Part shown: in pieces, positions 1,652 through 47,936 of the stretch
Numbering within the stretch: position 1 is the first letter of the stretch
Layout of the letters: every line of letters starts with the position of its first letter
Source: Escherichia phage AV115
Sequence record: OR352945.1
Strand: one strand, 5' to 3'
DNA length: 64,000 bases
Program-made: the position numbers and the translations under genes
The notes under the pieces: generated by a model
The model's database searches: none
What the model was told of the DNA's origin: nothing
What the model saw: only the letters and a program-made list of their open reading frames with translations

Positions 1652-1900
1652 TTATTTCAAAGTAATAACAAAATGACGTACTGCTTTACGAGCTGCAGAA
1701 GCCAAAGGCTTAGCATATTTCAGTTCATCTTTTGCTTCCAGTTCAGAAGCCAAAGCTGCCTGGACCGGGTTCAGATGTTTGAAATAACGAAGGATTTCAA
1801 GAGCTTCGGCTTCAACATCAATAGATGCGCCATAGTTTTCATGACCATTATTCCATGCGTTTCGTTGCAGTTCAAGAGCGTGTTGTAATTGTTTAATCAT
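1652..1900 (-). CDS. rIII: lysis inhibition accessory protein rIII (82 aa)
   Basis: Length and sequence match recalled T4 rIII; sits next to gene 31. Confidence 0.75.
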   Translation of the reverse strand: MIKQLQHALELQRNAWNNGHENYGASIDVEAEALEILRYFKHLNPVQAALASELEAKDELKYAKPLASAARKAVRHFVITLK

Positions 1901-2024
1901 TTTAAATTCTCAATTCGAGATAATATTTAGTAGCCACGTTCGTCTGAATTTCACCTTCTTTCGACAAGTCTCTCAGTTGTAGGCTACCGCTTAGAAGAGT
2001 GTTCTCTTCATATAGTTATTTATA

Positions 2025-2357
2025 TCACTTATAAAGACACGGAATAGCTTTATAGTGGCATGTTACGAATTTCTGTTTAATTTCTTTAGGTTGTTTAAGT
2101 CCCAAAGCCACAAATGGATGTGGAACATTTCGAATTTGTCCAACTGGTAGTGGAGTCAAATCACCGACTTCAACAAAACCTTCAGGAACATCAGGACCTA
2201 CAGAATGAACTACACATAGTTCAGGAACTTCACCTTGAACACGTTTACCAATCACAAGTCCTGATTCGGTAACTTCTTCATCACCTGCTTGAGCGGGTTC
2301 AGAAACCAGAATGACATATTCACCAACAGCACGAATTGGGAGTTGTACTTCAGACAT
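2025..2357 (-). CDS. 31: co-chaperonin gp31 (GroES analogue for capsid folding)
   Basis: 110 aa, near-identical to recalled T4 gp31 (MSEVQ...[22 protein letters not shown]...). Confidence 0.9.
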
Positions 2358-2414
2358 CTTATTTCCTTGTTGTTTGACGATAGATTAATAATACCATACT
2401 ATTCGTAAAGCATA

Positions 2415-2723
2415 TTACATAAGAAGCAAACGTTCTACCGGAGTACCATCAACCGAAATTACTTTATCAAGGCGGAAAGAACGCCACTGACCTAACTCGG
2501 TATCGAATGCTCGAACTGATTCACGAGGTTCAGAACGAACTTCTGTTGATGGGTTACTATTTTCATATTTGACTTCAAGTTCGTCGCGGGAAGCAAACAT
2601 CGTACGAACATCACCGTTAGCCTTTTCAAATACAACACAATGAACGCCTACAGACAGAATAGTTTTAATACGTTCACGAAGAACCATAGTTTCTTGTTCA
2701 GTTAAAATCATATTATTCACCAC
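2415..2723 (-). CDS. hypothetical protein (102 aa)
   Basis: ORF between cd and gene 31. Confidence 0.45.
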   Translation of the reverse strand: MVNNMILTEQETMVLRERIKTILSVGVHCVVFEKANGDVRTMFASRDELEVKYENSNPSTEVRSEPRESVRAFDTELGQWRSFRLDKVISVDGTPVERLLLM

Positions 2724-3294
2724 AAAAGTTTCGAATTTGTTCCCAATTCAGAGAACGAAGATTATTACGAGAGTACTGAATTACTTCAATACCGGCTTTT
2801 TTTAGAATGTCTGCCCAATTTTCAGGAGATCGGTCATATAATTCTGCATATACAACCTTTTTAATACCTGACTGTGTAATAGCTTTAGTGCAATCAGGAC
2901 ATGGAGAAAGCGTCGTATACAACGTAGCACCTTCAATAGAATTACCTTTACGAGCTGCAAACAAAATTGCATTCAATTCCGCATGGATTTCGTTATTAGC
3001 AGACCATGCACTATGAGCGGCCCGATGTTCTTTAGCCAAAACAAAATTATCCACCCGTCCAAATGCTGTAGTGCCTTCTTTATGCCCAGCAACGATGACC
3101 GGGCTTGGTTTATTCTTCAACCAACCATTTTCGGATGCATGTTCGCAACAGTTTGTACCACCTGAAGGAGAGCCATTATAACCTGTAGAAATAATGCGTC
3201 CATCTTTTTCAATGACGGCGCCAACTTTCCATGAACAACATTTTGATTCTTGAGAAATCAGATAAGCAATCTGAAGATATGTGCTAGCTTTCAT
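2713..3294 (-). CDS. cd: dCMP deaminase
   Basis: 193 aa; cytidine/deoxycytidylate deaminase zinc motifs (CEHA...SPCPDC); T4 cd length. Confidence 0.9.
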   Translation of the reverse strand: MKASTYLQIAYLISQESKCCSWKVGAVIEKDGRIISTGYNGSPSGGTNCCEHASENGWLKNKPSPVIVAGHKEGTTAFGRVDNFVLAKEHRAAHSAWSANNEIHAELNAILFAARKGNSIEGATLYTTLSPCPDCTKAITQSGIKKVVYAELYDRSPENWADILKKAGIEVIQYSRNNLRSLNWEQIRNFCGE

Positions 3295-11678: not shown

Positions 11679-13943
11679 TTAAAGCTTACAAGCAGAACAA
11701 TCTTCAGCTTTAGGTGTTTCTAATTCATAGTCATCTGTACCTGACCCATCACGAGTGTTATGATAGTAGAGGTTTTTTCCGCCAAAGTACCAGAAGTAAA
11801 GCAGATCGTCAAGCATTACTGACATTGGCACTTTACCTTTCTCAAATACTGCAGGGTCATAGTAAGTATTAGCAGAAGCAGATTGGCACACCCATTTCAA
11901 CATGATAGCAACTTGGGTCAAATAAGGTTTATTACCTTTCTTAGCAAGTTTCCACGCGTAGTCGTAAAGACTCATGTTATGTTCTATATTAGGAACAACC
12001 TGTCGGAAGTTGCCTTCTTTAGATTCTTTAATACTTACAGGTCCACGAGGTGGTTCTATACCATTTGTGCTATTTGAGACTTGACTGCTTGACTCACAAG
12101 GCATGAGTGCAGACAACGTTGAGTTACGAATTCCATGTTCTTTGAGTTCAGCTCGAAGTTCTTCCCAGTCACAGACATAGTTCGGGGCTGCGATTTGGTC
12201 AATCTTTTTATTGTACCAGTCGATAGGTAATTCGCCTCTAGACCATTTAGTGTCTGAATAATACTCACAAGGTCCTTTTTCTTTGGCGAGTTTGATTGAT
12301 GCTTTGATAAGGCCATATTGCAATCTCTCGAACAATTCATGGGTCAAATCGTTAGCGTCTTCATATGAAGCAAAGTTAGAAGCTAACCATGCAGCATAGT
12401 TCGTCACACCAACACCGAGATTTCGACGCTTTTTAGCTTTTAAAGCTTCTGGAACCGGATAATCTTGATAGTCTAACAGGTTATCAAGTGCACGTACTTG
12501 TACTTCAGCAAGTTCATTAATTTTATCTTGGTCTTGCCAATCAAATTTATCTAATACAAAAGCAGATAATGTGCATAAACCAATTTCAGCATCAGGACCA
12601 TTCACATCATTAGTTGGAATAGCGATTTCACAACATAAGTTACTCTGACGAATTGGAGCTTTTTCACGAATAAACGGAGTGTAGTTATTCGTGTTATCAA
12701 CAAACTGTGGATAAATTCGAGCAGTGCCAGAACGTTCAGTCATGAACAATTCAAAGAGTTCTAGTGCTTTGATTCTTTTCTTTCTGATTGTTGGGTCTTT
12801 TTCAGCTTTCTCATAAAGCTCACGGAATTTATCTTGATCTTCAAAGAACGAGTAGTATAGTTCACCTGACATTTCGTGAGGGCTAAATAAAGTAATATAA
12901 TCATTTTTACCAAGGCGTTCCATCATAAGGTCATTAATCTGAATTCCGTAGTCCATATGTCGAATACGGTTTTCATCCACGCCTTTGTTATTTTTCAGAA
13001 CTAATAGGTTCTCTACTTCTAAGTGCCACATCGGATAATACGCTGTAGCAGCACCACCACGAATACCACCTTGAGAACAAGATTTTACTGCAGTTTGGAA
13101 ATGTTTCCAGAATGGAATAACACCTGTATGTCGAACTTCACCCGTACCGATCTTAGAACCTTCTGCACGAAGCATACCAACGTTGATACCGATACCAGCT
13201 CGTTTAGAAATATATTCAATAATTGATGCTGAAGTTTTGTTAATAGATTTTAACGAATCACCTGCTTCAATAACTACACAACTAGAGAACTGGCGAGTTG
13301 GAGTACGAGCACCTGCCATAATTGGGGTTGGCAATGAAACTTGATGAGTAGAAACGGCATCATAAAAACGAATAATATGTTTCAAACGGTCATGAGTTTC
13401 GTCTTGGTGTAAGGCCATGCCAATAGCCATGATAGCAAACTGGGGAGTTTCATAAATCTTCCCAGTTGTTTTATCTTTAACTAGATATTTTTCTTTAAGC
13501 TGCATAGCACCAGCATAAGTCAGGTCAAAGTCTCGTTCATGTTTAATCTGTGAATCGAGATAAATGATTTCTTCTGCTGAATATTGAGACAACAGCTCAG
13601 GGTCATATTTGCCTTCATTAACACAGTAAGAAATATGGTCTATAAAAGCAGGCGGTTCAAACTGCCCATATACATCTTTACGAAGTGCAAACATTAGCCC
13701 TTTGGCGGCGACATACTGATAATCAGGTTCTTCGACAGAAATCAAGTTAGCTGCAACTTTAATACAAATCTTCTGAATATCTTTGGTGCTCATCCCGTCG
13801 ACAAGATGGGTCTTAATTTCTTCATACAATTCGTATGGGTCGATTTGTGTTCCTTCACACTGCCAAGTTAATACTTGAATAATTTTCTGTGCATCAAAAT
13901 TTTGGGATACACCTGAATTTTTCACTACTTTAAAATTATACAT
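11679..13943 (-). CDS. nrdA: ribonucleotide reductase large subunit NrdA
   Basis: 754 aa; class Ia R1 features; T4 length and synteny. Confidence 0.95.
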   Translation of the reverse strand: MYNFKVVKNSGVSQNFDAQKIIQVLTWQCEGTQIDPYELYEEIKTHLVDGMSTKDIQKICIKVAANLISVEEPDYQYVAAKGLMFALRKDVYGQFEPPAFIDHISYCVNEGKYDPELLSQYSAEEIIYLDSQIKHERDFDLTYAGAMQLKEKYLVKDKTTGKIYETPQFAIMAIGMALHQDETHDRLKHIIRFYDAVSTHQVSLPTPIMAGARTPTRQFSSCVVIEAGDSLKSINKTSASIIEYISKRAGIGINVGMLRAEGSKIGTGEVRHTGVIPFWKHFQTAVKSCSQGGIRGGAATAYYPMWHLEVENLLVLKNNKGVDENRIRHMDYGIQINDLMMERLGKNDYITLFSPHEMSGELYYSFFEDQDKFRELYEKAEKDPTIRKKRIKALELFELFMTERSGTARIYPQFVDNTNNYTPFIREKAPIRQSNLCCEIAIPTNDVNGPDAEIGLCTLSAFVLDKFDWQDQDKINELAEVQVRALDNLLDYQDYPVPEALKAKKRRNLGVGVTNYAAWLASNFASYEDANDLTHELFERLQYGLIKASIKLAKEKGPCEYYSDTKWSRGELPIDWYNKKIDQIAAPNYVCDWEELRAELKEHGIRNSTLSALMPCESSSQVSNSTNGIEPPRGPVSIKESKEGNFRQVVPNIEHNMSLYDYAWKLAKKGNKPYLTQVAIMLKWVCQSASANTYYDPAVFEKGKVPMSVMLDDLLYFWYFGGKNLYYHNTRDGSGTDDYELETPKAEDCSACKL

Positions 13944-14583
13944 AATAATTCCATGTTGGATAATTTGATGATTTTAGACGGCGTCTAACCGTTTGGGTGC
14001 TCATAGATAAAATTATTGACGCTTCATTTAATGTATCATATATTACGTCGTTTATAATTACTTTCTTTGCAAATGGATTCTTAGCTCCTATCATAGCGTT
14101 AGAAATAGCTTGCTTAGTTGATTCTTTTAATGGGACTCCTTTAGAAATTTTTGTTTTAATTTTTATATTGTATTGTCCGCGTTTTTTACCTAATAAAGAA
14201 TTTCGTATCTTTTCTTTAGTCTCTTCAGATTTAACATGTCCTAGTTTGGAACGAGATATTTTATCTTTTGTTTTTTGGTCTAATTTTCGCCCTTTAAGCA
14301 AATCAACCATTTTTGCTCTAGCCCATCCAAATTCTTTATTATTTCTAGAACTCATTAAATTAACCGCGGTTGCTAAACCTAAATTGTTCGGATATATTTT
14401 TAATAAAAGAAGATGAGCCAAATAATGTTCTGAATATGTTAATTTAACTAGATTGTATGACTCATTGGTGCCACCTAAACATTTTGGGATTATATGATGC
14501 CATTCACCATCGATATCTTCAAAATTTCTTTCTTTATTTACTAAGTTTTTATATATTTTTAAATAATCCATAGTATAATCCAC
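13936..14583 (-). CDS. free-standing HNH homing endonuclease (215 aa)
   Basis: HHIIPKCLGGTNESYNLVKLTYSEHYLAH motif; 3-prime end overlaps nrdA start by 8 nt. Confidence 0.75.
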   Translation of the reverse strand: MDYTMDYLKIYKNLVNKERNFEDIDGEWHHIIPKCLGGTNESYNLVKLTYSEHYLAHLLLLKIYPNNLGLATAVNLMSSRNNKEFGWARAKMVDLLKGRKLDQKTKDKISRSKLGHVKSEETKEKIRNSLLGKKRGQYNIKIKTKISKGVPLKESTKQAISNAMIGAKNPFAKKVIINDVIYDTLNEASIILSMSTQTVRRRLKSSNYPTWNYYV

Positions 14584-14646
14584 TTTGTAGTATCAACGGG
14601 ATAGTATTTATCCCGTTAATTTATTATACACTTTTAAACTGAAGCG

Positions 14647-14901
14647 TTAATTATCCTCAGCAATAATTTCTTCGTATTCTTTAGGTGTCAAGACCGTGAT
14701 ATTGAAATAAACCAACGGTTCTTTTTCCACACCGTAACCACCACAGAATTCACGATATTCATAAATTCGTTCATGTGAATAACAAATGAATCGTTCACCT
14801 TTAACTATGATTTCACTATTCGGTGAAGGGATATCTAGTTCGGTAGGATTTTTCATTTCAAAAATTGTGGTGCCATATGAATTAATAAAACGTAAAATCA
14901 T
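14647..14901 (-). CDS. hypothetical protein (84 aa)
   Basis: ORF between td exon 2 and the HNH gene. Confidence 0.45.
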   Translation of the reverse strand: MILRFINSYGTTIFEMKNPTELDIPSPNSEIIVKGERFICYSHERIYEYREFCGGYGVEKEPLVYFNITVLTPKEYEEIIAEDN

Positions 14902-14902
14902 T

Positions 14903-15214
14903 TTATACCGCCATTTTAGCTTTGATAGCTGGATGTGATTCGTAATTTTTAAGAACGAAATCAGAATGTGTCATCGTTCCGGTAACCCAGTCCATTTGGA
15001 TTTTTGTAGGCCAATTCTCAAAATTACTAGGCCAATTAATTTCAAGAGAACATAACTCTTTAGGTTCATGACGAAGAACTTCTTTGCATTGTTCTACATG
15101 ATTGCTGTAGATATGCGTGTTGCCGCCTGAGAACACTAAATCACCTGGGATAAGGTTACACATCTTCGCTACAATATGTGTCAAGGCAGCGTACGAGGCG
15201 ATGTTGAACGGTAG
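14903..15214 (-). CDS. td: thymidylate synthase, exon 2
   Basis: Begins LPFNIASYA..., matching recalled T4 td after the intron. Confidence 0.9.
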   Translation of the reverse strand, partial: LPFNIASYAALTHIVAKMCNLIPGDLVFSGGNTHIYSNHVEQCKEVLRHEPKELCSLEINWPSNFENWPTKIQMDWVTGTMTHSDFVLKNYESHPAIKAKMAV

Positions 15215-16230
15215 CATTATGTTCAGATAAGGTCGTTAATCTTATCCCGGAATTATATCCAGCTGCATGTCACCATGCAGAGCAGACTATATCTCCAACT
15301 TGTTAAAGCAAGTTGTCTATCGTTTCGAGTCACTTGACCCTACTCCCTAAAGGGATAGTCGTTAGGCATTTATGTAGAACCAATTCCACTTATCAGATTT
15401 TACACGGTAAGTAACTAATCCTGATGAAATTTCAAAATGTCTAGCCGCATCGGCTGCACATTCAAAAATAATCCCATCGCATGAAATCTTTTTGATGTTA
15501 GCTGGCTTTTTGCCTTTCATCTTTTCAGATAGTTTAGTTTTAGTTTTTTCTGAATGTTTGTGATTAAAGAACGGGTTATTTTCACCTGAACGTTTTCGGC
15601 ACTTTCCACAAGTATCGGCCGAAGATGGTATGCGAACACCGCATTTACAAAACTTGTGGTTTTCTGGATTCCATCGGCCATTTTTACTTCCGTGTTTACC
15701 ATAAAGAGCTTTCCGACCATCAGGACCAAGCTTAAGCATCTTAGCTTTAACAGTTTCAGCTCGTTTCTTAGCAATTTCTTCTTTTAATGGATGATTTGAA
15801 AGCACATCGCCAAAAGACGCATCAGCAATATTATATCCATTAATTTTAGAATTTAGCTCTTTAATCCAAAAATTTTCTCGTTCAATAATCAAATCTTTCT
15901 CATATGGAATTTCTTCCAGTATAGAGCATTCAAAAACATTACCATGTTTATTAAAAGACCTTTGAAATTTTATAGAAGAGTGAACACCGTTTTCAAGGTC
16001 TTTAAAATGTCTCTTCCATCTTTTCTCAAAATCTTTAGCACTTCCAACATACACTTTACCGTTTAAAGTGTTTTTAATCTGATAAATTCCGCTTTTCATA
16101 AACACCTCTTTTTATATAGAAGTATTTATTAAAGGGTAGTCCTACAATTTAGCACGGGATTGTCTACTAGAGAGGTCCCCCGTTTAGATAGATTACAAGT
16201 ATAAGTCACCTTATACCTAGGCCTAAATTA
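15215..16230 (-). mobile_element. group I intron in td (1016 nt)
   Basis: 5-prime end TAATTTAGGCCTAGGTATAAGGTGACTTATAC and 3-prime end GAACATAATG on the minus strand; length equals recalled T4 td intron. Confidence 0.9.
15362..16099 (-). CDS. GIY-YIG homing endonuclease I-TevI
   Basis: 245 aa from ATG 16097-16099; MKSGIYQIKNTLNGKVYVGSAKDFEKRWKRH closely matches recalled I-TevI. Confidence 0.9.
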   Translation of the reverse strand: MKSGIYQIKNTLNGKVYVGSAKDFEKRWKRHFKDLENGVHSSIKFQRSFNKHGNVFECSILEEIPYEKDLIIERENFWIKELNSKINGYNIADASFGDVLSNHPLKEEIAKKRAETVKAKMLKLGPDGRKALYGKHGSKNGRWNPENHKFCKCGVRIPSSADTCGKCRKRSGENNPFFNHKHSEKTKTKLSEKMKGKKPANIKKISCDGIIFECAADAARHFEISSGLVTYRVKSDKWNWFYINA

Positions 16231-16779
16231 ACCTAAGAAAACATCTACACTGCGTTGATACCATTGTAAATCAAGATGACCATTACGCACATTGAACTGA
16301 TAGAACATATGGCAAGGAGGAAGAGCCATTTGATTTATTTCAGCCGGATTCCAGGCAGAAACAATTTGACGACGATCAGTTGGTAATTTTTTAATACGGT
16401 CGATTGTTTCAACTAATTGGTCTACACCACCAAAATCACGCCATTGCTTACCATAAATAGGACCAAGTTCGCCGCTATGATATCCAAGGTCTTTTGCCTG
16501 ATTTTCATAGTTGTCGTCCCAAATAGTTTTACCTTGAATAAGACTACCATGAGTACGAATACGCAAATCATTAACATTGGTAGAACCAGACATGAACCAC
16601 AGTAACTCGGCAATACAAGCTTTCCATGCTAATTTCTTAGTTGTTACTGCAGGAAATCCTTTAGTAAGGTCCCAACGTAATTTAGTTCCGAACAGGGCAA
16701 TAGTGCCGGTACCTGTACGGTCGTCTGTTTCGTAGCCATTTTCTAAGATATCTTTAATCAGGTATTGGTATTGTTTCAT
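16231..16779 (-). CDS. td: thymidylate synthase, exon 1
   Basis: Ends ...SVDVFLG; in-frame TAA is the first three intron nucleotides. Confidence 0.9.
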
Positions 16780-17363
16780 TTATATACGCTCTCAGTAATT
16801 TCGGTGAGTTCATCGATTCTGTAGTAATGAGATTCTACCATAGAACGTTGAAGCATAATATCTTGGACGAAATCTTTATCAAGTTGAACATCGGAATTAA
16901 CACGACATTTCTTAATGATTTTAGTCATCACGATTTCATCGGCATAAGGCAGTGCTTGTTTTAATAGAGCAGGGCCACCAATAATAGATACATCAACATG
17001 TTCAGTAGAAAGTTTAAACGGTACGTCAGTTGCAGGGCTAAACAGGTTAATTTCACCACCCGTTACCAAGGTAATAAATTCTGCTTGGGTGATATAGAAC
17101 CGTGCAAGTTCGTTGGTTTTGGTCCTAGGCAGTTTTCTGGCCATATCAGTGACAACCACATGAGTACGATCCTGGAGTAGACGAGGTAATGATGCAAAAG
17201 TCTTAGCACCCATAACCATTACAGTGTTTTTAGTGCGAGCAACAAAGTTACTCATATCTTGTTTGATATGCTTCCATGGAAGTCCATCACCTAATCCAAA
17301 AGCATATTCCAGTTTATCATCAACTGTTTTAGTCGGAGCGCATGCGAATACTAATTTAAGCAT
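16776..17363 (-). CDS. frd: dihydrofolate reductase
   Basis: 195 aa; matches recalled T4 Frd (GLGDGLPW...VIGGPALL...ALPYADE). Confidence 0.9.
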   Translation of the reverse strand: MLKLVFACAPTKTVDDKLEYAFGLGDGLPWKHIKQDMSNFVARTKNTVMVMGAKTFASLPRLLQDRTHVVVTDMARKLPRTKTNELARFYITQAEFITLVTGGEINLFSPATDVPFKLSTEHVDVSIIGGPALLKQALPYADEIVMTKIIKKCRVNSDVQLDKDFVQDIMLQRSMVESHYYRIDELTEITESVYK

Positions 17364-17366
17364 TTT

Positions 17367-17615
17367 TTATTTCCTCAGATTTTTCTTAACAACTTTCCAA
17401 TCAGCTTTAAACGATTCAACATCAGAGTGGTGAATCCAGAATCCTGCACTTTCACCATCTTCGTAGAGTGGACATCCATCGCATTCTTCGTTCCAACCCA
17501 TTTCACGTAAAGCTTCTTCAGCTTGTTCAAGGAGTTCAGCGTCTTTACCAACGATGTTGAAGTACCATTTACCTCTAACTTCAGAATCTTTGATGCTCTG
17601 GCGTTGCAATCTCAT
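17367..17615 (-). CDS. hypothetical protein (82 aa)
   Basis: Start moved to ATG 17613-17615 with AAGGAG RBS. Confidence 0.5.
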   Translation of the reverse strand: MRLQRQSIKDSEVRGKWYFNIVGKDAELLEQAEEALREMGWNEECDGCPLYEDGESAGFWIHHSDVESFKADWKVVKKNLRK

Positions 17616-17677
17616 TTTATTCTCCTTCACTTTTGATTTGATAGGGCTACTATAACATAACCCTATCTGATTATACA

Positions 17678-18070
17678 CTACTTTTTAAAAGTTTTTTGCA
17701 AAAGTTTGATGATTTCGTCGACGTTGGTTTCATCTACGATACAATGGATTTTTGTTACACCTAAAGTTATACCTTCGTTAGTAGGTTGAGGCTTTACTAA
17801 ATCTACTTCAATAAAGTATTTGAACTCGTCAGGATAAATCTCGAAATAAGTTTCAATTTCACCACCGGCAGAACATACAGTACCGTCTTCCATAGTTACA
17901 CTTACTACGTTTGACGTATCGCTATCATAATCAGGTTCCATTCCGTTTACAACAAAACTAGGCCCATGGAGTTCAATCAATTTTAACATCTTAGCGTTAT
18001 TGTGTGGTGCTTCTTGAACAAAGTCGTCTTTAAATAAAGGGTTAATGATATAAGATTTTCCGATTTCCAT
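17678..18070 (-). CDS. hypothetical protein (130 aa)
   Basis: ATG with GAGGAA RBS; early promoter at 18095-18129. Confidence 0.5.
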   Translation of the reverse strand: MEIGKSYIINPLFKDDFVQEAPHNNAKMLKLIELHGPSFVVNGMEPDYDSDTSNVVSVTMEDGTVCSAGGEIETYFEIYPDEFKYFIEVDLVKPQPTNEGITLGVTKIHCIVDETNVDEIIKLLQKTFKK

Positions 18071-18094
18071 TTTGATTTCCTCATGTTGTTGATA

Positions 18095-18129
18095 GGTCTA
18101 TACTAACACATCCAGGTAAGAAGTAAACA
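18095..18129 (-). promoter_or_regulatory. T4-type early promoter
   Basis: Minus strand GTTTAC, 17 nt, TAGTAT. Confidence 0.5.
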
Positions 18130-18159
18130 ACTTTTTCGGCAATTTACAGATACTCAAAA

Positions 18160-18177
18160 GGGAGACCGAAGTCTCCC
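18160..18177 (-). terminator. intrinsic terminator after gene 32
   Basis: GGGAGAC-UUCG-GUCUCCC then CUUUUG on minus transcript. Confidence 0.6.
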
Positions 18178-18183
18178 AATTTA

Positions 18184-19083
18184 TTATAGACCAGCTAACA
18201 GGTCATCGAGGTCACCATCGTCAGAAGACGAGGAACTCATGAAGTCATCTTCAGTTTTTGCAGAACCAAAGGCTTCCATGTCTTTATCAAAATCGTCAAG
18301 GTCAGAAGCAACTTTATCTGCAACAGAAGCTGCTGCGGCTGCTGCACCACCAAGAGCGGCAGTACCAAGAACTTGATTAAATTTAGTATTCAATTCTTCA
18401 AACGATTTGAACTTATCTTTAGAAGTCATTTCAGAAAGGTCGACCATTTGTTCGAACAATTCTTTCTGGAAAGATTCATCATCAATGTTTGGAATCGCAG
18501 ATTGATTCAGGAATTTAGATTCGTCGTAGTTACTGAAACCAGAAACCTGTTTAACTTTCAGCACAAAGTTAGCACCTTCCCACGGGCAAGTTACATCAAC
18601 AGGAGTTTCACCCATTTCAGTATCGACTGCAATCATTGCATTGATTTTGTCCCAAATCTTTTTACCGAAACGATATTTGAATACTTTACCTTCATTATCT
18701 GGAGCTTGAGGGTCTTTAACAACCAGAATATTAGCCCAATAAGAAGTTTTACGTTTCAGTTGAGAATATTCAGTTTTGTTGGTATTGTACAGGTCATTTT
18801 TACTAATGTACTGACATACAGGACAAGAGTCATAATCGCCGTGTGTAGATGAACAGGTTTCAATATACCATTTACCATTTTTCTTGAACCCGTGGTTAAC
18901 AAGAATTGTAAACGGAAGTGCGTCATCTGTTTTTGCCGGCAGGAAACGAATTACCGCTTGACCATTACCGGATGCATCGAGTTTCAGCTTCCATTCACCT
19001 TTATCTTCTGAAGAGAAACCTTTGTTACCATTCAGTTTAGCCATCTGAGCTGCGAGGTCTGCGGTACTTTTACGTTTAAACAT
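18184..19083 (-). CDS. 32: single-stranded DNA-binding protein gp32
   Basis: 299 aa; near-identical to recalled T4 gp32 including acidic C-terminus. Confidence 0.95.
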
Positions 19084-19150
19084 TTTATTTGCCTTTATTT
19101 AGATTATTAATTAAATTTTACAGTTGGTTGCTACGACACTTATACCTCGT
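19084..19150 (-). promoter_or_regulatory. gene 32 5-prime leader, putative autoregulatory operator
   Basis: Unstructured AU-rich leader before the gene 32 ATG; T4 gp32 autoregulation is established. Confidence 0.4.
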
Positions 19151-19163
19151 AGCTGGTATGATT

Positions 19164-19171
19164 TATTTATA
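19164..19171 (-). promoter_or_regulatory. late promoter (TATAAATA) upstream of gene 32
   Basis: Exact TATAAATA on minus strand about 80 nt upstream of gene 32 start. Confidence 0.55.
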
Positions 19172-19200
19172 AAGTAATTTTAACACACAAGAAATAAAGC

Positions 19201-19854
19201 TTAATACTTACATGATTTGATTGTTTCTATGAACAATTTCTTAGCAGCATTTCTATCGATTTGAAGTATTTTTCGATATGCCTTTAATTTGGTAGAATAA
19301 TTTTGCCAGACTAAGTTATCGGTGAGTTCGTCGTGCTTATCTATAATATTCAAAAACGAGTCCAACAATAAGAAAGTTTCAAATGAAATTATATTGCTTT
19401 GTAGCAATTTAAATATGTAGCTCGACTGAACGTTGTTATTATAATCAAATATCTCTTGAAGCGCACTAACTTCAACTTTCTTACTGAAATAGTAGATGTT
19501 ACGTACGTCTTCAGCAAACGTCTCCTTGGCTTGTTTGAGACGTCCAATATATTCCCTATAGAAAACTAATGCATCAGCGTCTGATATCTCACCAATCCAT
19601 GCGTCTTGGTTAGCAACTAAGTTGCTTATGAATATCAAGGTGAGTTCCTTCAATTTATATTTCTCTGCTAGTTTTTCAAAGAAATATTTATCTCGGCGTT
19701 TTTGATACGCATTATCCGAAACACGCATGCACCAGTTATATTTGATTACGTCATACCGACCACCAAAGTGGTTTTTGCACATCAAGTATAGTTTATATAC
19801 TGATTTTCCATTAATATAACGTTCTCCGTCAGGAGGCATGCGTATTTTAATCAT
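19201..19854 (-). CDS. 59: helicase loader gp59
   Basis: 217 aa; near-identical to recalled T4 gp59. Confidence 0.9.
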   Translation of the reverse strand: MIKIRMPPDGERYINGKSVYKLYLMCKNHFGGRYDVIKYNWCMRVSDNAYQKRRDKYFFEKLAEKYKLKELTLIFISNLVANQDAWIGEISDADALVFYREYIGRLKQAKETFAEDVRNIYYFSKKVEVSALQEIFDYNNNVQSSYIFKLLQSNIISFETFLLLDSFLNIIDKHDELTDNLVWQNYSTKLKAYRKILQIDRNAAKKLFIETIKSCKY

Positions 19855-20530
19855 AGTTCCATCCAGGCCATTTTGAAGATTTAAGTCTATATGTAACTAA
19901 AGACGCAGAAATATTAAAAACATTTGAAACTTCTTTACACGAGGCGTATTTTACACCATCAATAATTATAGGTTTTTGTTTTTTAATAGTTCTTTCTTTA
20001 GAATGCGGCTTTGAATTTGCTATTCTAAGAGCTTCTTTGGTTGAATCAGGCATCGGCTTATTCGTTTTTCGCCCTTTTCGGACTTTACTCAAGGCCAATT
20101 TGTGAGCTTCAGATAGTTTCTTACCCTTATTAGGTGACGGTATTTTTCTTTCTAGTCTTGTTTTAGATACTTTAGCCTTAGTCTCTTCAGATCTAGGTTT
20201 ACCTAATTTAGAAAGTGAAATAGACCTTTTAGCTTCATCACTTTGTTTTTTACCAGGACCACCTTTACCACCGGGAACTAAGTTATAAGTATCATCTCGC
20301 AAAACAAAATCTTCATTAACCAATTCTGCTTCTTTTTTATAGGCGTCCTTGTCATTATCATATTCATAAAGAATTTCGGTATAAAAATTTTTTAGTCCAT
20401 ATTTAGCTTTGGCCGCTAATATAGCGCGGCCTGATCCAATATACCAATCTTTCTCTTTATGTTTTTTGTGTACGCCTATATAAATTTTACCATTTATTTT
20501 ATTGGTAGTTTTATACACAACGTATTTCAT
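19847..20530 (-). CDS. free-standing GIY-YIG homing endonuclease (seg-like, 227 aa)
   Basis: N-terminal VVYKTTNKINGKIYIGVH GIY-YIG motif, basic C-terminal DNA-binding region. Confidence 0.75.
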   Translation of the reverse strand: MKYVVYKTTNKINGKIYIGVHKKHKEKDWYIGSGRAILAAKAKYGLKNFYTEILYEYDNDKDAYKKEAELVNEDFVLRDDTYNLVPGGKGGPGKKQSDEAKRSISLSKLGKPRSEETKAKVSKTRLERKIPSPNKGKKLSEAHKLALSKVRKGRKTNKPMPDSTKEALRIANSKPHSKERTIKKQKPIIIDGVKYASCKEVSNVFNISASLVTYRLKSSKWPGWNYD

Positions 20531-20865
20531 AATAAGAAATCTAGCGTATTAGTTTTTTCACCACGAGCAACTGATGGGCGAAGCATGTTTTCGTCAATTG
20601 CTTCGCTTGTAATTTTTTCAACAATTCCTGTAGGAATAAATTTAGCAAATTGTGTTTCTGGAATAGAATTTTCTTCCAAGAAAGCAGTTGTTGCTTCTAA
20701 ATAAGACATACCAAATTGTTCAACCATGGATTCGATAATGAATCCGTTTTCTTGACGGTCAAGCAATTTAGCGATATCATCTTTATCGTGTTTTACTGCT
20801 AATTCTTGTTCAGATAAACCGGCCTCATCAACCGGTTTAATATCACTTAGTGAAAACTGTGTCAT
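20527..20865 (-). CDS. 33: late transcription co-activator gp33
   Basis: 112 aa; near-identical to recalled T4 gp33. Confidence 0.85.
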   Translation of the reverse strand: MTQFSLSDIKPVDEAGLSEQELAVKHDKDDIAKLLDRQENGFIIESMVEQFGMSYLEATTAFLEENSIPETQFAKFIPTGIVEKITSEAIDENMLRPSVARGEKTNTLDFLL

Positions 20866-21112
20866 AAAGCTCGACTACCTCTTCGTTTTCAGCTTCAAAT
20901 TGGTCACGAGCGTCTTTATGATAAAGAGCTAACAAACGATTAAACATTTTTCCATCGACACCAAGCTCTTCTTTAGCACGAGTACGAATGTCTTTAATCA
21001 GTTCATTATAACCAGAAATTTTAAGTTTGTTATCGGAAGCTTCCTTGACTAGTTTAGCCAGTTCTTCACCATGCACATCTTGATTAAATTCAACTGCTTC
21101 TTTCTTAGCCAT
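20843..21112 (-). CDS. dsbA: dsDNA-binding late transcription protein DsbA
   Basis: 89 aa from internal ATG (MAKKEAVEF...); track ORF has a 6-codon N-terminal extension. Confidence 0.7.
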   Translation of the reverse strand: MAKKEAVEFNQDVHGEELAKLVKEASDNKLKISGYNELIKDIRTRAKEELGVDGKMFNRLLALYHKDARDQFEAENEEVVELYDTVFTK

Positions 21113-21119
21113 GTTTACC

Positions 21120-22037
21120 TCAGAATTCATTAATTACACTTGTCAATTTAGAAAGACCAGATTTTACAAAGTATGAATAAATCTTGCCTTTAGGTTGTGG
21201 TTTATATGAGTTATAATACTCTATAATGGTTGAAGCAATATTATCAGGGATATAATCAAAATCAATGAGAACCAAATTTTCTTGATACCGTTTATATTCT
21301 TCTGCACTTAATAATACTTCAGCTTGAGAGCGGTCATTGGCAATTGCTTCAATAATCGTTGTTTTCATGCTTGGAGTTCGTTCACCATCAACTCTGGTAA
21401 ACCAGAAGTCACCACGAACTCGAACCGATGCAACACCGTCTTTACGGTCACCTTTAAGAATTTTAGTCATGCAATCAATTTCAGCAGAACCGTTCTTAAT
21501 TTTAACCCATTTTTTCTGTGGTGGCGACCACTGTTTAACGTTAGGATATTTGTGTAATTGTGTAAAGTCACCATCTGATGCAACAATACATACTTTATGT
21601 CCAGCTAATGACAAATATTTAGTTAATACACCGATATGGTCATCCGCTTCATACTTGTCAATATCCATTACAACGTATGGCATGTATTTCTTAATCTCAT
21701 CAACAACTTGATGGAGTGCAGTAAAATATCCTTCCCAATCCCACTTTGAAGCTTCACGATCGGTTTTACGATTTTTCTTGTAATAGTAAGCAAAGTCACG
21801 TCGCCAATAACCTGAAGTAGCATTATCCATACACAATACAAATTTTGTATAGCCTTGCTTACGGAACATCACTACGTTTTTACGAATTGAATTCAAGATT
21901 ACATGGCGAACCATCGGAACAGTAATTTTATCGCCGTCTTCAAAGTTGTTTAATGCGGCTGCCAATGCAATGTTACTAAAGTCGGCAAGTGCAATACCTT
22001 CTTTGTAATCTTCATCCAACATCATTTCTAAATCCAT
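21120..22037 (-). CDS. rnh: RNase H (5-prime to 3-prime exonuclease / flap endonuclease)
   Basis: 305 aa; near-identical to recalled T4 RNase H. Confidence 0.9.
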   Translation of the reverse strand: MDLEMMLDEDYKEGIALADFSNIALAAALNNFEDGDKITVPMVRHVILNSIRKNVVMFRKQGYTKFVLCMDNATSGYWRRDFAYYYKKNRKTDREASKWDWEGYFTALHQVVDEIKKYMPYVVMDIDKYEADDHIGVLTKYLSLAGHKVCIVASDGDFTQLHKYPNVKQWSPPQKKWVKIKNGSAEIDCMTKILKGDRKDGVASVRVRGDFWFTRVDGERTPSMKTTIIEAIANDRSQAEVLLSAEEYKRYQENLVLIDFDYIPDNIASTIIEYYNSYKPQPKGKIYSYFVKSGLSKLTSVINEF

Positions 22038-22064
22038 ATGAACCTCTTGTTCAGTTAGTCAACT

Positions 22065-22100
22065 TGTCTATAGTAACACACTCATTTGAAAGCGTAAACT
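22065..22100 (-). promoter_or_regulatory. T4-type early promoter for rnh
   Basis: Minus strand GTTTAC, 18 nt, TACTAT; back-to-back with gene 34 late promoter. Confidence 0.5.
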
Positions 22101-22102
22101 GG

Positions 22103-22110
22103 TATAAATA
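22103..22110 (+). promoter_or_regulatory. late promoter (TATAAATA) for gene 34
   Basis: Exact TATAAATA about 30 nt upstream of gene 34 ATG. Confidence 0.7.
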
Positions 22111-22140
22111 AGTATTATTGAAACAATAAAGGAAAAACGA

Positions 22141-25100
22141 ATGGCCGACATCAAACGTAAGTTCAGAGCCGAAGACGGTCTGGACGCCGGTGGCGACAAG
22201 ATTGTTAACGTAGCATTAGCCGACCGTACAGTAGGTACTGATGGCGTAAACGTTGACTTCCTGGTACAAGAAAACACCGTTCAAGTATATGATTCTACGC
22301 GTGGATATAACAGAGGATTTGTTGTTCTTTATGACAACCGCTTATATCAAGCAATAAATGATATCGTGTCTCCTTCCGGGGCATTTAACCTTTTACAATG
22401 GCGTGCAGTTCGTACTGATGCACAATGGATAACCGTCGCTTCTGGGACTTATCAACTTTCTTCAGGCGAATCGATTTCTGTTAACACTGGTGCCGGCAAT
22501 GATATGGTTTTCACGTTGCCAAATACTCCGGTTGATGGTGATACTGTTGTTTTGGCTGATATTGGTGGAAGAACCGGGACAGTTAAAGTACAGATTAACG
22601 CGTCTGTGCAGAGTATTTTAAACTTTAGAGGTGAACAAGTTCGTACAGTTTTAATGACGCGCCCACGTTCACAACTATTGTTTGTGTTTAGTAATCGTTT
22701 GTGGCAGATGTATATTATCGATTATGGTAAAGAATCAATCACTGTTACACCTGCGACACCATATCAAGCACAAGCAAATGATTTTATCGTTCGTCGTTTT
22801 ACTAGTGCAGCACCAATCAACATTACACTTCCACGTAATGCTAACAATGGTGATATAATCAGCCTAGTCGATTTAGATAGATTAAACCCACTGTATCATA
22901 CAATTGTTAAAACATTTGATGATACAACGTCTATTGGTGAAGTCGGGACTCATATTGCCGAAGGCAGAAATGACTCTGACGCGTTTTTTGTTTTTGATGC
23001 CGCAAATAGTTTATGGCGTATATGGGAAGGCGACCAGAAATCGCGTCTTCGTATTATCCGTGCGGATTCAAATATTCGTCCAAATGAAGAAGTTCTTATT
23101 TTTGGCACAAATAACGCTACAGCCGGAACTATTAATCTTACGCTGCCTTCCGGAATTTTGAGTGGTGACACTGTTAAAATTTCAATGAACTACATGCGTA
23201 AAGGCCAAACAGTAAAAATTAAAGCTGCCGAAGGTGATACAATTGCTTCTTCTGTCGCATTACTTCAGTTCCCTAAACGTTCTGAATATCCACCTGATGC
23301 TCAATGGGTTTCTGTTACTGAACTAGAATTCAATGGCACTACTTCATATGTTCCTGTGTTAGAATTAGCGTATATCGAAGACACTGTTGCTGGTACACGT
23401 TATTGGGTTGTTCAACAAAACGTCCCTACAGTAGAACGTGTTGATGCTGGAACTGATGCTACACGAGCTCGTTTAGGTGTTATTGCTCTTGCTACTCAAG
23501 CGCAAGCAAATGTTGATTTAGAGAATACTCCAGCTAAAGAAGTGGCTATTACTCCGGAAACATTGGCAAATCGTACAGCAACTGAAGCTCGACGTGGTAT
23601 CGCTAAAATTGCTACAACAGCACAAGTTAACCAGAATTCCACAGCATCATTTGTGGACGATACTATTGTTACGCCTAAAAAACTAAATGAGCGTACAGCA
23701 ACTGAAACTCGTCGCGGTCTTGCTGAAATTGCTACTCAGACCGAAACCGATGCTGGTCTTGATGACACAACGATTATTACACCTAAGAAATTGCAGGCAC
23801 GTCAGGGTTCTGAAACACTATCGGGTATAGTTAAATATGTATCAACTACTTCTGCTACTCCTGCTGAAACTCGTGGGGCTGCAGGCACTAACGTTTATAA
23901 TAAAGACACAACTACGTTAACTATTTCGCCTAAAGCTCTCGATCAGTATAAAGCGACTTCTACTCAACAGGGTGCTACTATTCTGGCTCTTGAAAGTGAA
24001 GTAATTGCTGGTCAATCCCAAGCAGGTTATTCTCATGCTGTAGTAACTCCTGAAACACTACATAAGAAAACTTCTACTGATGGACGTATTGGTTTAATTG
24101 AAATTGCTACGCAAGCAGAAACTAATGCTGGGACTGATTATACACGTGCAGTAACGCCTAAGACGTTAAATGATAGGAAAGCTACGGAAGGATTATCCGG
24201 CATAGCCGAACTTGCTACGCAAGTTGAATTTGATACTGGAACTGATGATACTCGTATCTCGACTCCACTGAAAATTAAAACTCATTTTGATTCTTCTGAC
24301 CGTACCAGTGTTAATTCTGATTCCGGACTTATTGAAGAAGGAACCTTGTGGAACCATTATACTCTTGATATTTCTAAAGCAAATGAAACACAACGTGGTA
24401 CACTTCGCGTAGCGACCCAGGCAGAATCTAATGCAGGAACTTTAGATGATGTTCTTATTACTCCTAAAAAGCTTTTAGGGACTAAGTCCACTGAAACGTC
24501 TGAAGGCGTAATTAAGGTTGCTACTCAGGCTGAAACTGTAACAGGAACTTCTGCTAATACTGCTGTATCTCCTAAGAATTTAAAATGGATTGTCCAGAAA
24601 GAACCAACATGGGCTGCTACTACAGCAATTCGCGGATTCGTTAAAACTTCATCCGGTTCTATTACATTCGTTGGTAATGATACAGTCGGTTCTACCCAAG
24701 ATTTAGAACTGTATGAGAAAAATAGCTATGCAGTATCACCATATGAATTAAACCGTGTATTGGCAAATTATTTGCCGTTAAAAGCAAAAGCCGTAGATAG
24801 TAATTTATTGGATGGTCTAGATTCATCTCAGTTCATTCGTAGGGACATCGCCCAGTCAGTTAATGGTTCACTAACCTTAACCCAACAAACGAATCTGAGT
24901 GCCCCTCTTGTATCATCTAGTACTGCTACGTTTGGTGGTTCAGTTTCGGCAAATAGTACATTAACTATTTCTAACTCTGGAACAGCTACTCGTCTGATTT
25001 TTGAAAAAGGACCTCAGTCCGGAACAAATCCTGCTCAAACGATGACTATCAGAGTTTGGGGAAATGAATTTGGTGGTGGTTCAGATACAACACGTTCTAC

Positions 25101-47260: not shown

Positions 47261-47936
47261 TAGATTTTCTCTCAAATTGCATGACTATATTTTTGTATGA
47301 ACCTTCCGGAAATCCACGTTTAATGCTTTCTTTAGCAAATTTCCCAACCTTTGGTTTATCCAATTCTAACCATAATTTATATAAAGCAGATTCATATTCC
47401 CATACAGGACTTTTACGATTTTTAAGCCCACACTTTATAAGCGCTTCCTTTGTATGTTTCTTATTATAAAATGGATTGTTTTTGCCACTCATTGCTTTAG
47501 AATGTTCCGGGCGCTTAATTCCATACATCGGATTAAGATCGCCTTTCTTGATAACGGATTGTAGTTCAATAGTTTCTTCAGAGTGATTGTGTCCATAAAA
47601 TGGATTTAACTCTTTTGAAACATCCATACCAAAGCACCCATCGACTGTGGCATAAGACATGTTGAAAAATTTTTCAGATTTAACCACATTATGCAATTTC
47701 TGGTAATACAACTCACAAAACGTCGCTTCTTCCCGTGTATCAAATTCGCCAATAATACATGAATCAAATAAATGAGGATTATCTTTTATCTCTTTATCAT
47801 AAATTTGTTTATATTTTTTCGACTTTACCGTACCATGATAGTGATTGTTTGTATGTTTATCAAGATAAGTAGACCCTATATAAAACGGTGGCAACTTATC
47901 GCCTGTGTATATTGTTAAGTATGTTATGTATTTCAT
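47253..47936 (-). CDS. GIY-YIG-like homing endonuclease (seg-like, 227 aa)
   Basis: N-terminal YITYLTIYTGDKLPPFYIGST and repeated NPFYG/NPMYG/NPFYN motifs; overlaps gene 39 start. Confidence 0.65.
   Translation of the reverse strand: MKYITYLTIYTGDKLPPFYIGSTYLDKHTNNHYHGTVKSKKYKQIYDKEIKDNPHLFDSCIIGEFDTREEATFCELYYQKLHNVVKSEKFFNMSYATVDGCFGMDVSKELNPFYGHNHSEETIELQSVIKKGDLNPMYGIKRPEHSKAMSGKNNPFYNKKHTKEALIKCGLKNRKSPVWEYESALYKLWLELDKPKVGKFAKESIKRGFPEGSYKNIVMQFERKSND

Follow-up and report, generated by a model that had tools for sequence, protein, structure and literature searches.

A putative Seg-type GIY-YIG homing endonuclease gene inserted between genes 33 and 59 of the Mosigvirus phage AV115

Background

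Seven seg loci are known from phage T4, and intronless homing with marker exclusion has been demonstrated experimentally for T4 SegF and SegG. T4 segG (gene 32.1) is located between genes 32 and 59 (PMC2988022, Table 1), and several T4 seg and mob genes are known to be promoter-less cassettes (PMC2988022). RB69 was reported to be without homing endonuclease genes (PMC2993671).

Here, we describe an ORF, designated the Seg ORF, that separates gene 33 from gene 59 in an RB69-like phage, and which we regard with a probability of about 0.8 as a free-standing Seg-type GIY-YIG homing endonuclease gene, carried as a promoter-less cassette in Mosigvirus. It reveals no new mechanism; it is an ordinary example, already annotated in GenBank, and would not surprise a specialist. 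Several Mosigvirus records label the gene "putative Seg-like homing DNA endonuclease" or "homing endonuclease", and a literature search found no paper describing or naming it, or any other homing endonuclease between genes 33 and 59.

Results and discussion

Locus and neighbouring genes

The window, that is, the whole stretch of 64,000 nucleotides analyzed, derives from Escherichia phage AV115 (sequence record OR352945.1), a Mosigvirus, i.e., an RB69-like T-even phage, and 161 related records matched it. The 2.2 kb surrounding the Seg ORF shared 99.6% identity with Escherichia phage AV118. Genes of this locus are arranged on the minus strand in the order rnh, dsbA, gene 33, Seg ORF, gene 59, and gene 32, followed by gene 34, which is divergent and lies on the plus strand; apart from seg insertions, this order is the same as that in T4. 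The features are as follows:

21120-22037, minus strand: rnh
20843-21130, minus strand: dsbA
20527-20865, minus strand: gene 33 (gp33, late-transcription coactivator), the upstream neighbour; Pfam Trans_coact, 3.5e-26
19847-20530, minus strand: Seg ORF (Seg-type GIY-YIG homing endonuclease, as predicted), 227 aa plus stop codon, with the N-terminus MKYVVYKTTNKINGKIYIGVH
19201-19854, minus strand: gene 59 (gp59, helicase loader), the downstream neighbour; T4_Gp59_N, 1.9e-49, and T4_Gp59_C, 7.8e-44
18184-19083, minus strand: gene 32

An earlier note on this DNA had described a 227-aa ORF at 19847-20530 that overlaps the start of gene 59 by 8 nt. The ORF was present on the minus strand with the N-terminal peptide as given, and the overlap (ATGATTAA, 19847-19854) was seen directly in the sequence, the TAA stop of the Seg ORF falling within codons 2-3 of gene 59. 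At the other end, the ATG of the Seg ORF and the stop codon of gene 33 share 4 nt, ATGA (20527-20530, read from the sequence).

Predicted protein and its domains

The assignment of the ORF to the seg-like endonucleases of the GIY-YIG type, also made in the earlier note, was borne out by profile and BLASTP searches, whose matches far exceed what chance would give. The PHROGs family phrog_314, "homing endonuclease", matched the predicted protein at 1.9e-56; NCBIfam TIGR01453 (I-TevI-like GIY-YIG endonucleases) scored 74.2 bits versus a curated cutoff of 56.05, residues 4-224 being aligned with profile positions 3-210 of 215; and in a BLASTP comparison that took in all nine T4 GIY-YIG proteins the nearest was SegD (39.5% identity over residues 1-171, 2.9e-37). 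Three parts could be distinguished in the protein:

20261-20530, minus strand: GIY-YIG catalytic domain, approximately residues 1-90 (alignments, AlphaFold, and Foldseek)
20006-20254, minus strand: Lys/Arg-rich helical linker with NUMOD3-like repeats, approximately residues 93-175 (weak Pfam NUMOD3 match and predicted helices)
19853-19984, minus strand: C-terminal I-TevI-type helix-turn-helix DNA-binding domain, residues 183-226 (Pfam, PDB 1i3j, and Foldseek)

At the N-terminus, the Pfam SegE_GIY-YIG match (residues 5-81) was sub-threshold, with a score of 22.4 versus the gathering score of 25, and the NUMOD3 match in the linker was weak as well (E 0.0027, below cutoff). The C-terminal domain was matched by Pfam I-TevI_DNA-bd (PF20987; residues 183-226, 3.3e-12, 46.5 bits versus a cutoff of 27) and, by sequence, by the I-TevI DNA-binding domain in PDB 1i3j (5e-4). 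The lysine richness pointed out earlier amounted to 18.5% K overall, with 23 K (31 K+R) in residues 90-190.

Residues Y6 (in VVY), Y17 (in YIG), E67, and N83 were invariant in an alignment of 44 sequences. In a second alignment, comprising 12 sequences including T4 SegA, SegB, SegD, and SegE as well as I-TevI, Y6, Y17, and N83 were invariant and E67 was nearly so, and the Seg protein kept all residues that are invariant among these four T4 proteins and I-TevI. No clearly aligned counterpart was found in the Seg protein for the catalytic Arg27 of I-TevI, the conserved Arg after YIG, the segment being a gap versus I-TevI in the 12-sequence alignment. The four T4 Seg proteins are likewise without an aligned Arg27 counterpart there and, since active T4 Seg enzymes share this deviation, it is no argument for inactivity.

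The AlphaFold model, built with 44 homologues, had a mean pLDDT of 84.8, with values of 86-94 over residues 1-80, 94-96 over residues 191-220, and lower ones in the linker, where helices were predicted at H98-107, H115-128, H141-153, and H162-173; the alpha/beta fold of GIY-YIG domains was present in the model. The top Foldseek match was the I-TevI DNA-binding domain 1i3j, and others were I-HmuI and the I-TevI catalytic domain 1mk0/1ln0 (prob 0.98-1.00, target-normalised TM 0.60-0.65, E 1e-2 to 7e-2), the modest E-values being due to each match spanning one domain of a multidomain model.

Linker length differs among the homologues, whose total length is 197-231 aa. Two Seg copies from metagenomic T4-like contigs (L049, 2501..3196, and L052, 2501..3100) are 88% identical where aligned and differ by a linker block of about 32 residues (231 aa versus 199 aa), which suggests that linker length, and hence the spacing of binding versus cleavage sites, evolves fast.

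Comparison with T4 Seg proteins and I-TevI

Next after SegD among the T4 proteins were SegC, SegB, SegE, and SegA, with 39-48% identity in the N-terminal domain (3e-26 to 1e-15); the N-domains of SegC, SegB, and SegE were 43-48% identical to that of the Seg protein. What SegD, SegC, SegB, SegE, and SegA have in common with it is an N-terminal motif block, Y-x-TN-x-N-x-K-x-Y-x-G-x-H...D-x-Y-x-GSG...K-x-G...E...YN...GG. Like T4 segA-E, the gene stands free between conserved genes and is carried by some relatives but not by others. The slot differs, however, from that of segD, which occupies 23/24 and for whose product the target is given as unknown (PMC2988022, Table 1), whereas the slot here is 33/59. 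A further difference is that the I-TevI-type C-terminal helix-turn-helix shows little or no alignment to the C-termini of T4 SegA, SegB, SegD, and SegE.

With I-TevI, the Seg protein shared 27% identity along its full length (7e-9) and the three-part layout of GIY-YIG domain, extended linker, and C-terminal helix-turn-helix; the best structural matches of both Seg domains were the I-TevI domains. Unlike I-TevI, it is encoded by a free-standing gene and not by an intron, although it is predicted to work like I-TevI, and it is without the I-TevI zinc finger (CKCG...CSKC, a gap in the 12-sequence alignment), NUMOD3-like helices being found instead. The Seg ORF appears to be closest to the T4 SegA-E subgroup, combined with a full-length I-TevI architecture, and its identity as a Seg-type GIY-YIG homing endonuclease gene is considered quite probable.

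Intron endonuclease or relocated segG

Two other identities can be weighed against this one. TIGR01453 bears the family name "group I intron endonuclease", and the GenBank labels "intron endonuclease, group I" (348Ecol098PP) and "putative group I intron endonuclease" (WFbE185) point in the same direction, to an endonuclease encoded within an intron. The ORF, however, lies between two complete genes and overlaps both, no gene being interrupted, and at the empty site two separate genes simply share 4 nt. Rfam at gathering threshold over 12000-23000 of the window returned no family, group I intron included. With complete overlapping neighbours and no Rfam match, a group I intron location is ruled out by the anatomy, and an intron-encoded endonuclease is given next to no credence.

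The other candidate is an orthologue of T4 segG moved by one gene through local rearrangement. Both are free-standing genes of the GIY-YIG class adjoining gene 59 in the same replication-gene cluster, rnh-dsbA-33-59-32; segG is a promoter-less cassette within an existing operon too (PMC2988022), and by analogy the two would be expected to act alike, through marker exclusion with co-conversion. Yet the pairwise similarity was not significant (BLASTP E = 3.7 for T4 SegG versus the Seg protein in a direct comparison, and no SegG match when all nine T4 GIY-YIG proteins were compared), the Seg ORF lies on the opposite side of gene 59, and the gene order of the locus is otherwise identical to that of T4. 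In the phage studied here, the 59/32 interval of 117 nt contained no ORF of at least 40 aa. Synteny comparison showed that both slots may be filled at once by two unrelated genes: in Dhakavirus IME540 (L003), 59/32 is occupied by a SegG orthologue (58% identity) and 33/59 by a Seg homologue (56%), and the metagenomic locus L050 has a SegG-like gene and a Seg homologue in the same respective positions. SegG orthology was rejected on the E-value, the slot, and this coexistence, and a relocated segG is exceedingly improbable. The earlier note had placed T4 segG at 32/59, which agrees with the T4 locus and PMC2988022, and had supposed that the present gene fills a different slot in the same cluster; this proved to be so, the ORF being at 33/59 and not an orthologous segG at the same relative position as in T4.

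Anatomy of the insertion and expression signals

Where the insert is absent, as in T4 and in the Mosigvirus phages NBG1, RB69, JS09, and nine others, the stop of gene 33 and the start of gene 59 overlap as ATGA. The insert is 676 bp long and lies exactly at this overlap, both junctions being identical in 11 of 11 aligned Seg+ loci, and a clean ATGA empty site was found in all 12 aligned Seg- loci, RB69 included. The following elements were located at its ends:

20521-20530, minus strand: left boundary repeat ATGAAATACG (ATGA-AATACG), in which the Seg start replaces the gene 59 start in the ATGA overlap
19841-19854, minus strand: right boundary repeat ATGATTAAAATACG, with the true gene 59 start
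19859-19864, minus strand: GGATGG, a weak Shine-Dalgarno-like element for gene 59, provided by the 3' end of the Seg ORF (read from the sequence)

The left and right boundary repeats constitute an imperfect direct repeat around the insert. In other lineages, the opening 8-10 nt of the Seg ORF are those that begin the cognate gene 59, mostly ATGATTAAR, and in one locus (L053) the starts of the Seg ORF and gene 59 are both ATGATTCGTC. Because the Seg ATG occupies the old overlap, and a gene 59 start is re-created at the 3' end of the insert, the Seg ORF has, as judged from the sequence, captured the start codon of gene 59 together with its former initiation context and translational coupling to gene 33. 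In phage 55, a ribosome binding site is annotated at the position equivalent to GGATGG, and we infer that GGATGG may act as the ribosome-binding element of gene 59.

Gene 59 is annotated in shortened form in RB69 (L048, AY303349.1, locus 1702..2229; 528 nt) and in JS09 (L042, 1702..2340; 639 nt). These look like start-site annotation errors rather than biology, since in both phages the aligned DNA has the complete 654-nt ORF, overlapping gene 33 by ATGA.

The T4 late-promoter motif TATAAATA was absent in and just upstream of the Seg ORF, the nearest copy being at 19164-19171, upstream of gene 32 and within the 59/32 interval, and sigma-70-like matches (22 versus 15 +/- 3.9 expected) were not clearly above chance; a dedicated Seg promoter was rejected on these grounds. 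By eye, no convincing MotA-box middle promoter was seen in the 3' end of gene 33. Folding for an RNA hairpin that might sequester the Seg start codon gave a weak fold only (z = -1.28), and no Seg-specific terminator was found. The Seg ORF looks like the promoter-less cassettes of T4, presumably lying within an rnh-dsbA-33-59 transcription unit.

Distribution among Mosigvirus and other T4-like phages

A Seg gene with at least 95% protein identity was carried by 28 of the 154-161 Mosigvirus-like records, always at the 33/59 junction, and these 28 records represent 25 distinct phages after merging of RefSeq/GenBank duplicates. Presence varied among close relatives: within the species Mosigvirus JS09, SSE1 is Seg+ while JS09 and ST0 are Seg-, and in the AV collection AV109, AV114, AV116, and AV118 are Seg+ while AV111 and AV113 are Seg-, the recorded source of AV116 and AV118 being pig waste, Denmark.

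A search of a large protein database recovered a discrete subfamily of 16 proteins (P0001-P0016) with 46-97% identity, mostly over the full query length, beyond which matches dropped to about E-32. Genomic context was examined for members from Dhakavirus, a Serratia phage, and metagenomic T4-like phages. In all seven other lineages examined (IME540, L015, P0002, P0006, P0010 of Serratia phage LC53, P0012, and P0008), and in 8 of 8 subfamily members inspected at 46-58% identity, the gene occupies the 33/59 slot with the same 4-nt start overlap. The slot was empty in 20 of the first 26 T4-like loci (L001-L026). Between genera, Seg identity (51-66%, closest pair 88%) tracks that of gp33 (53-67%, 87%) and of RNase H; therefore, on these sequences, the association of the Seg gene with the 33/59 slot is judged to be old. 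Recent transfer of the gene between genera found no support, as Seg identities follow those of the flanking genes. Beside the seven T4 seg loci, 33/59 is a further occupied slot.

Intactness and selection

Ten of 11 Mosigvirus Seg copies were intact. The exception, in AV116 (L030, locus 2348..3032), carries one additional C near codon 103, a frameshift whereby the protein is truncated at residue 107, with a stop at codon 108; the gene is thus dispensable. In the GenBank annotation of AV116, only the downstream piece of 138 aa appears, as a "hypothetical protein". Mean pairwise dN/dS among intact Seg copies was 0.11, in the range of the values for gene 33 (0.11) and gene 32 (0.10), and the Seg protein is therefore maintained by purifying selection.

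Gene 59 polymorphism linked to the Seg gene

As a scan of IMG/VR with gp59 gave only one close Mosigvirus locus, the population analysis rested on 23 GenBank loci, 11 Seg+ and 12 Seg-, aligned over about 4 kb; 669 columns were polymorphic, the insert itself being left aside. No more than seven of these were associated with the Seg gene at p<0.01, and all fell within one short stretch, 53-91 nt into gene 59:

19763-19801, minus strand: Seg-associated gene 59 SNP cluster, a candidate co-conversion tract or target/immunity site

The Seg+ genomes read TAT...AAAAACCACTTTGGTGGT (KNHFGG) at this cluster and eight of the 12 Seg- genomes read TAC...AAACAACATTTTAATGGT (KQHFNG); the other four Seg- genomes (G2285, mobillu, LF82-41, and LF82-3) had a Seg+-like cluster at 19763-19773. 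Among these 23 loci, no Seg association was detected deeper in gene 59 or on the gene 33 side, where the last 40 nt of gene 33 are almost invariant in Seg+ and Seg- phages.

In the larger set of records, identity over the first 155 nt of gene 59 fell in a 90-95% band, read as a diverged gene 59 allele in an approximate classification, in none of 28 Seg+ versus about 92 of 126 Seg- records (Fisher p = 8e-14, uncorrected for phylogeny and from non-independent samples). About 34 Seg- records had the Seg+-like gene 59 allele. Across genera, residues 27-32 of gp59, which vary within Mosigvirus, showed no consistent Seg+/Seg- pattern, and the SNP association is therefore restricted to Mosigvirus. 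On sequence grounds, the pattern is compatible alike with a short co-conversion tract, a target-site or immunity polymorphism, or plain tight linkage.

Proposed mode of spread and its alternative

When a Seg+ phage and a Seg-less Mosigvirus infect the same cell, the genome of the latter would be bound close to or at its 33/59 junction by the C-terminal helix-turn-helix together with the NUMOD3-like linker, and the tethered GIY-YIG domain would cut both strands nearby. The target might be the junction itself, which is split by the insert in Seg+ genomes, or a site in gene 59 no more than ~100 nt from its start. Recombinational repair would then copy the Seg gene into the recipient, along with adjoining 5' sequence of gene 59, up to ~100 nt in length. 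The donor could be immune by either of two routes: a recognition sequence spanning the junction would be split by the insert, or the gene 59 allele of Seg+ phages would be refractory to cleavage. Overall, this would amount to intronless homing with marker exclusion. Protein identity and architecture, precise insertion, a clean empty site, patchy presence, locus fidelity, capture of the start codon, purifying selection, and linked markers were counted in its favour, and ongoing homing by the Seg gene seems somewhat better than an even bet.

The alternative is that the gene is resident and passed on vertically and has ceased to home, its patchiness reflecting loss and ordinary recombination; variants of it include a decaying relic, a protein engaged in DNA binding or regulation near genes 33/59, and exclusion without self-propagation. 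Such a history would account for Seg divergence between genera being congruent with that of the flanking genes, for the frameshifted AV116 copy, and for the roughly 34 Seg- records with the Seg+-like gene 59 allele, which are expected under loss by recombination; purifying selection, moreover, means a useful protein but not necessarily homing. A decaying relic, on the other hand, is inconsistent with the dN/dS of 0.11 and the 10 of 11 intact copies, and the conserved catalytic residues are all retained. Presence and absence within species at an identical junction, with a short tract on the adjacent side only, is the signature of active T4 Seg genes. An immobile resident gene is considered unlikely. 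The cross-genus congruence of the Seg gene and its flanks, taken alone, fits long vertical residence with repeated loss and active spread equally well.

Returning to homing as the preferred reading, a wider picture may be put forward tentatively, with slightly less than even confidence: an unnamed Seg lineage may have been tied to the 33/59 junction across several Tevenvirinae genera since before their divergence, through a cycle of homing and loss, with its start codon taken from gene 59 and its target at the junction or no more than ~100 nt into gene 59, biasing inheritance of the 5' end of that essential gene among co-infecting Mosigvirus phages. If this were true, about 27% of the Seg-less phages would by now have a gene 59 allele resistant to cleavage. 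Seg+ and Seg- isolates circulate side by side, and with the short SNP tract they provide a natural setting in which a new GIY-YIG target could be mapped along with its co-conversion tract; in phage-therapy cocktails containing Mosigvirus, biased marker transfer around gene 59 would be predicted in mixed infections.

Other endonuclease genes in the window

Three homing endonuclease genes were recognized in the window: besides the Seg gene, td contains an orthologue of I-TevI, and an HNH gene lies upstream of nrdA; RB69-type phages are accordingly not free of such genes, despite the report for RB69 (PMC2993671). The thymidylate synthase gene td is split on the minus strand into exon 1 (16228-16779) and exon 2 (14903-15217), and an ORF at 15362-16105 between the exons is 89% identical to T4 I-TevI, a true orthologue. 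Its position between the split exons implies, from the sequence, a putative T4-like td group I intron with a homing endonuclease in a Mosigvirus, although Rfam at gathering threshold returned no group I intron there.

The HNH ORF (13936-14583, minus strand; 215 aa, motif EWHHIIPKCLGG) overlaps the start of nrdA by 8 nt and has a NUMOD3-like linker followed by a C-terminal I-TevI-type helix-turn-helix. Its C-terminal half and residues 100-226 of the Seg protein share 37% identity, so that an HNH and a GIY-YIG endonuclease of one genome have a DNA-binding module in common. At 47541-47684 on the minus strand, tblastn gave a weak match (37% over 51 aa, E 2e-4) to the C-terminal region of T4 SegC, which could represent a piece of a further endonuclease or else a motif of the NUMOD type.
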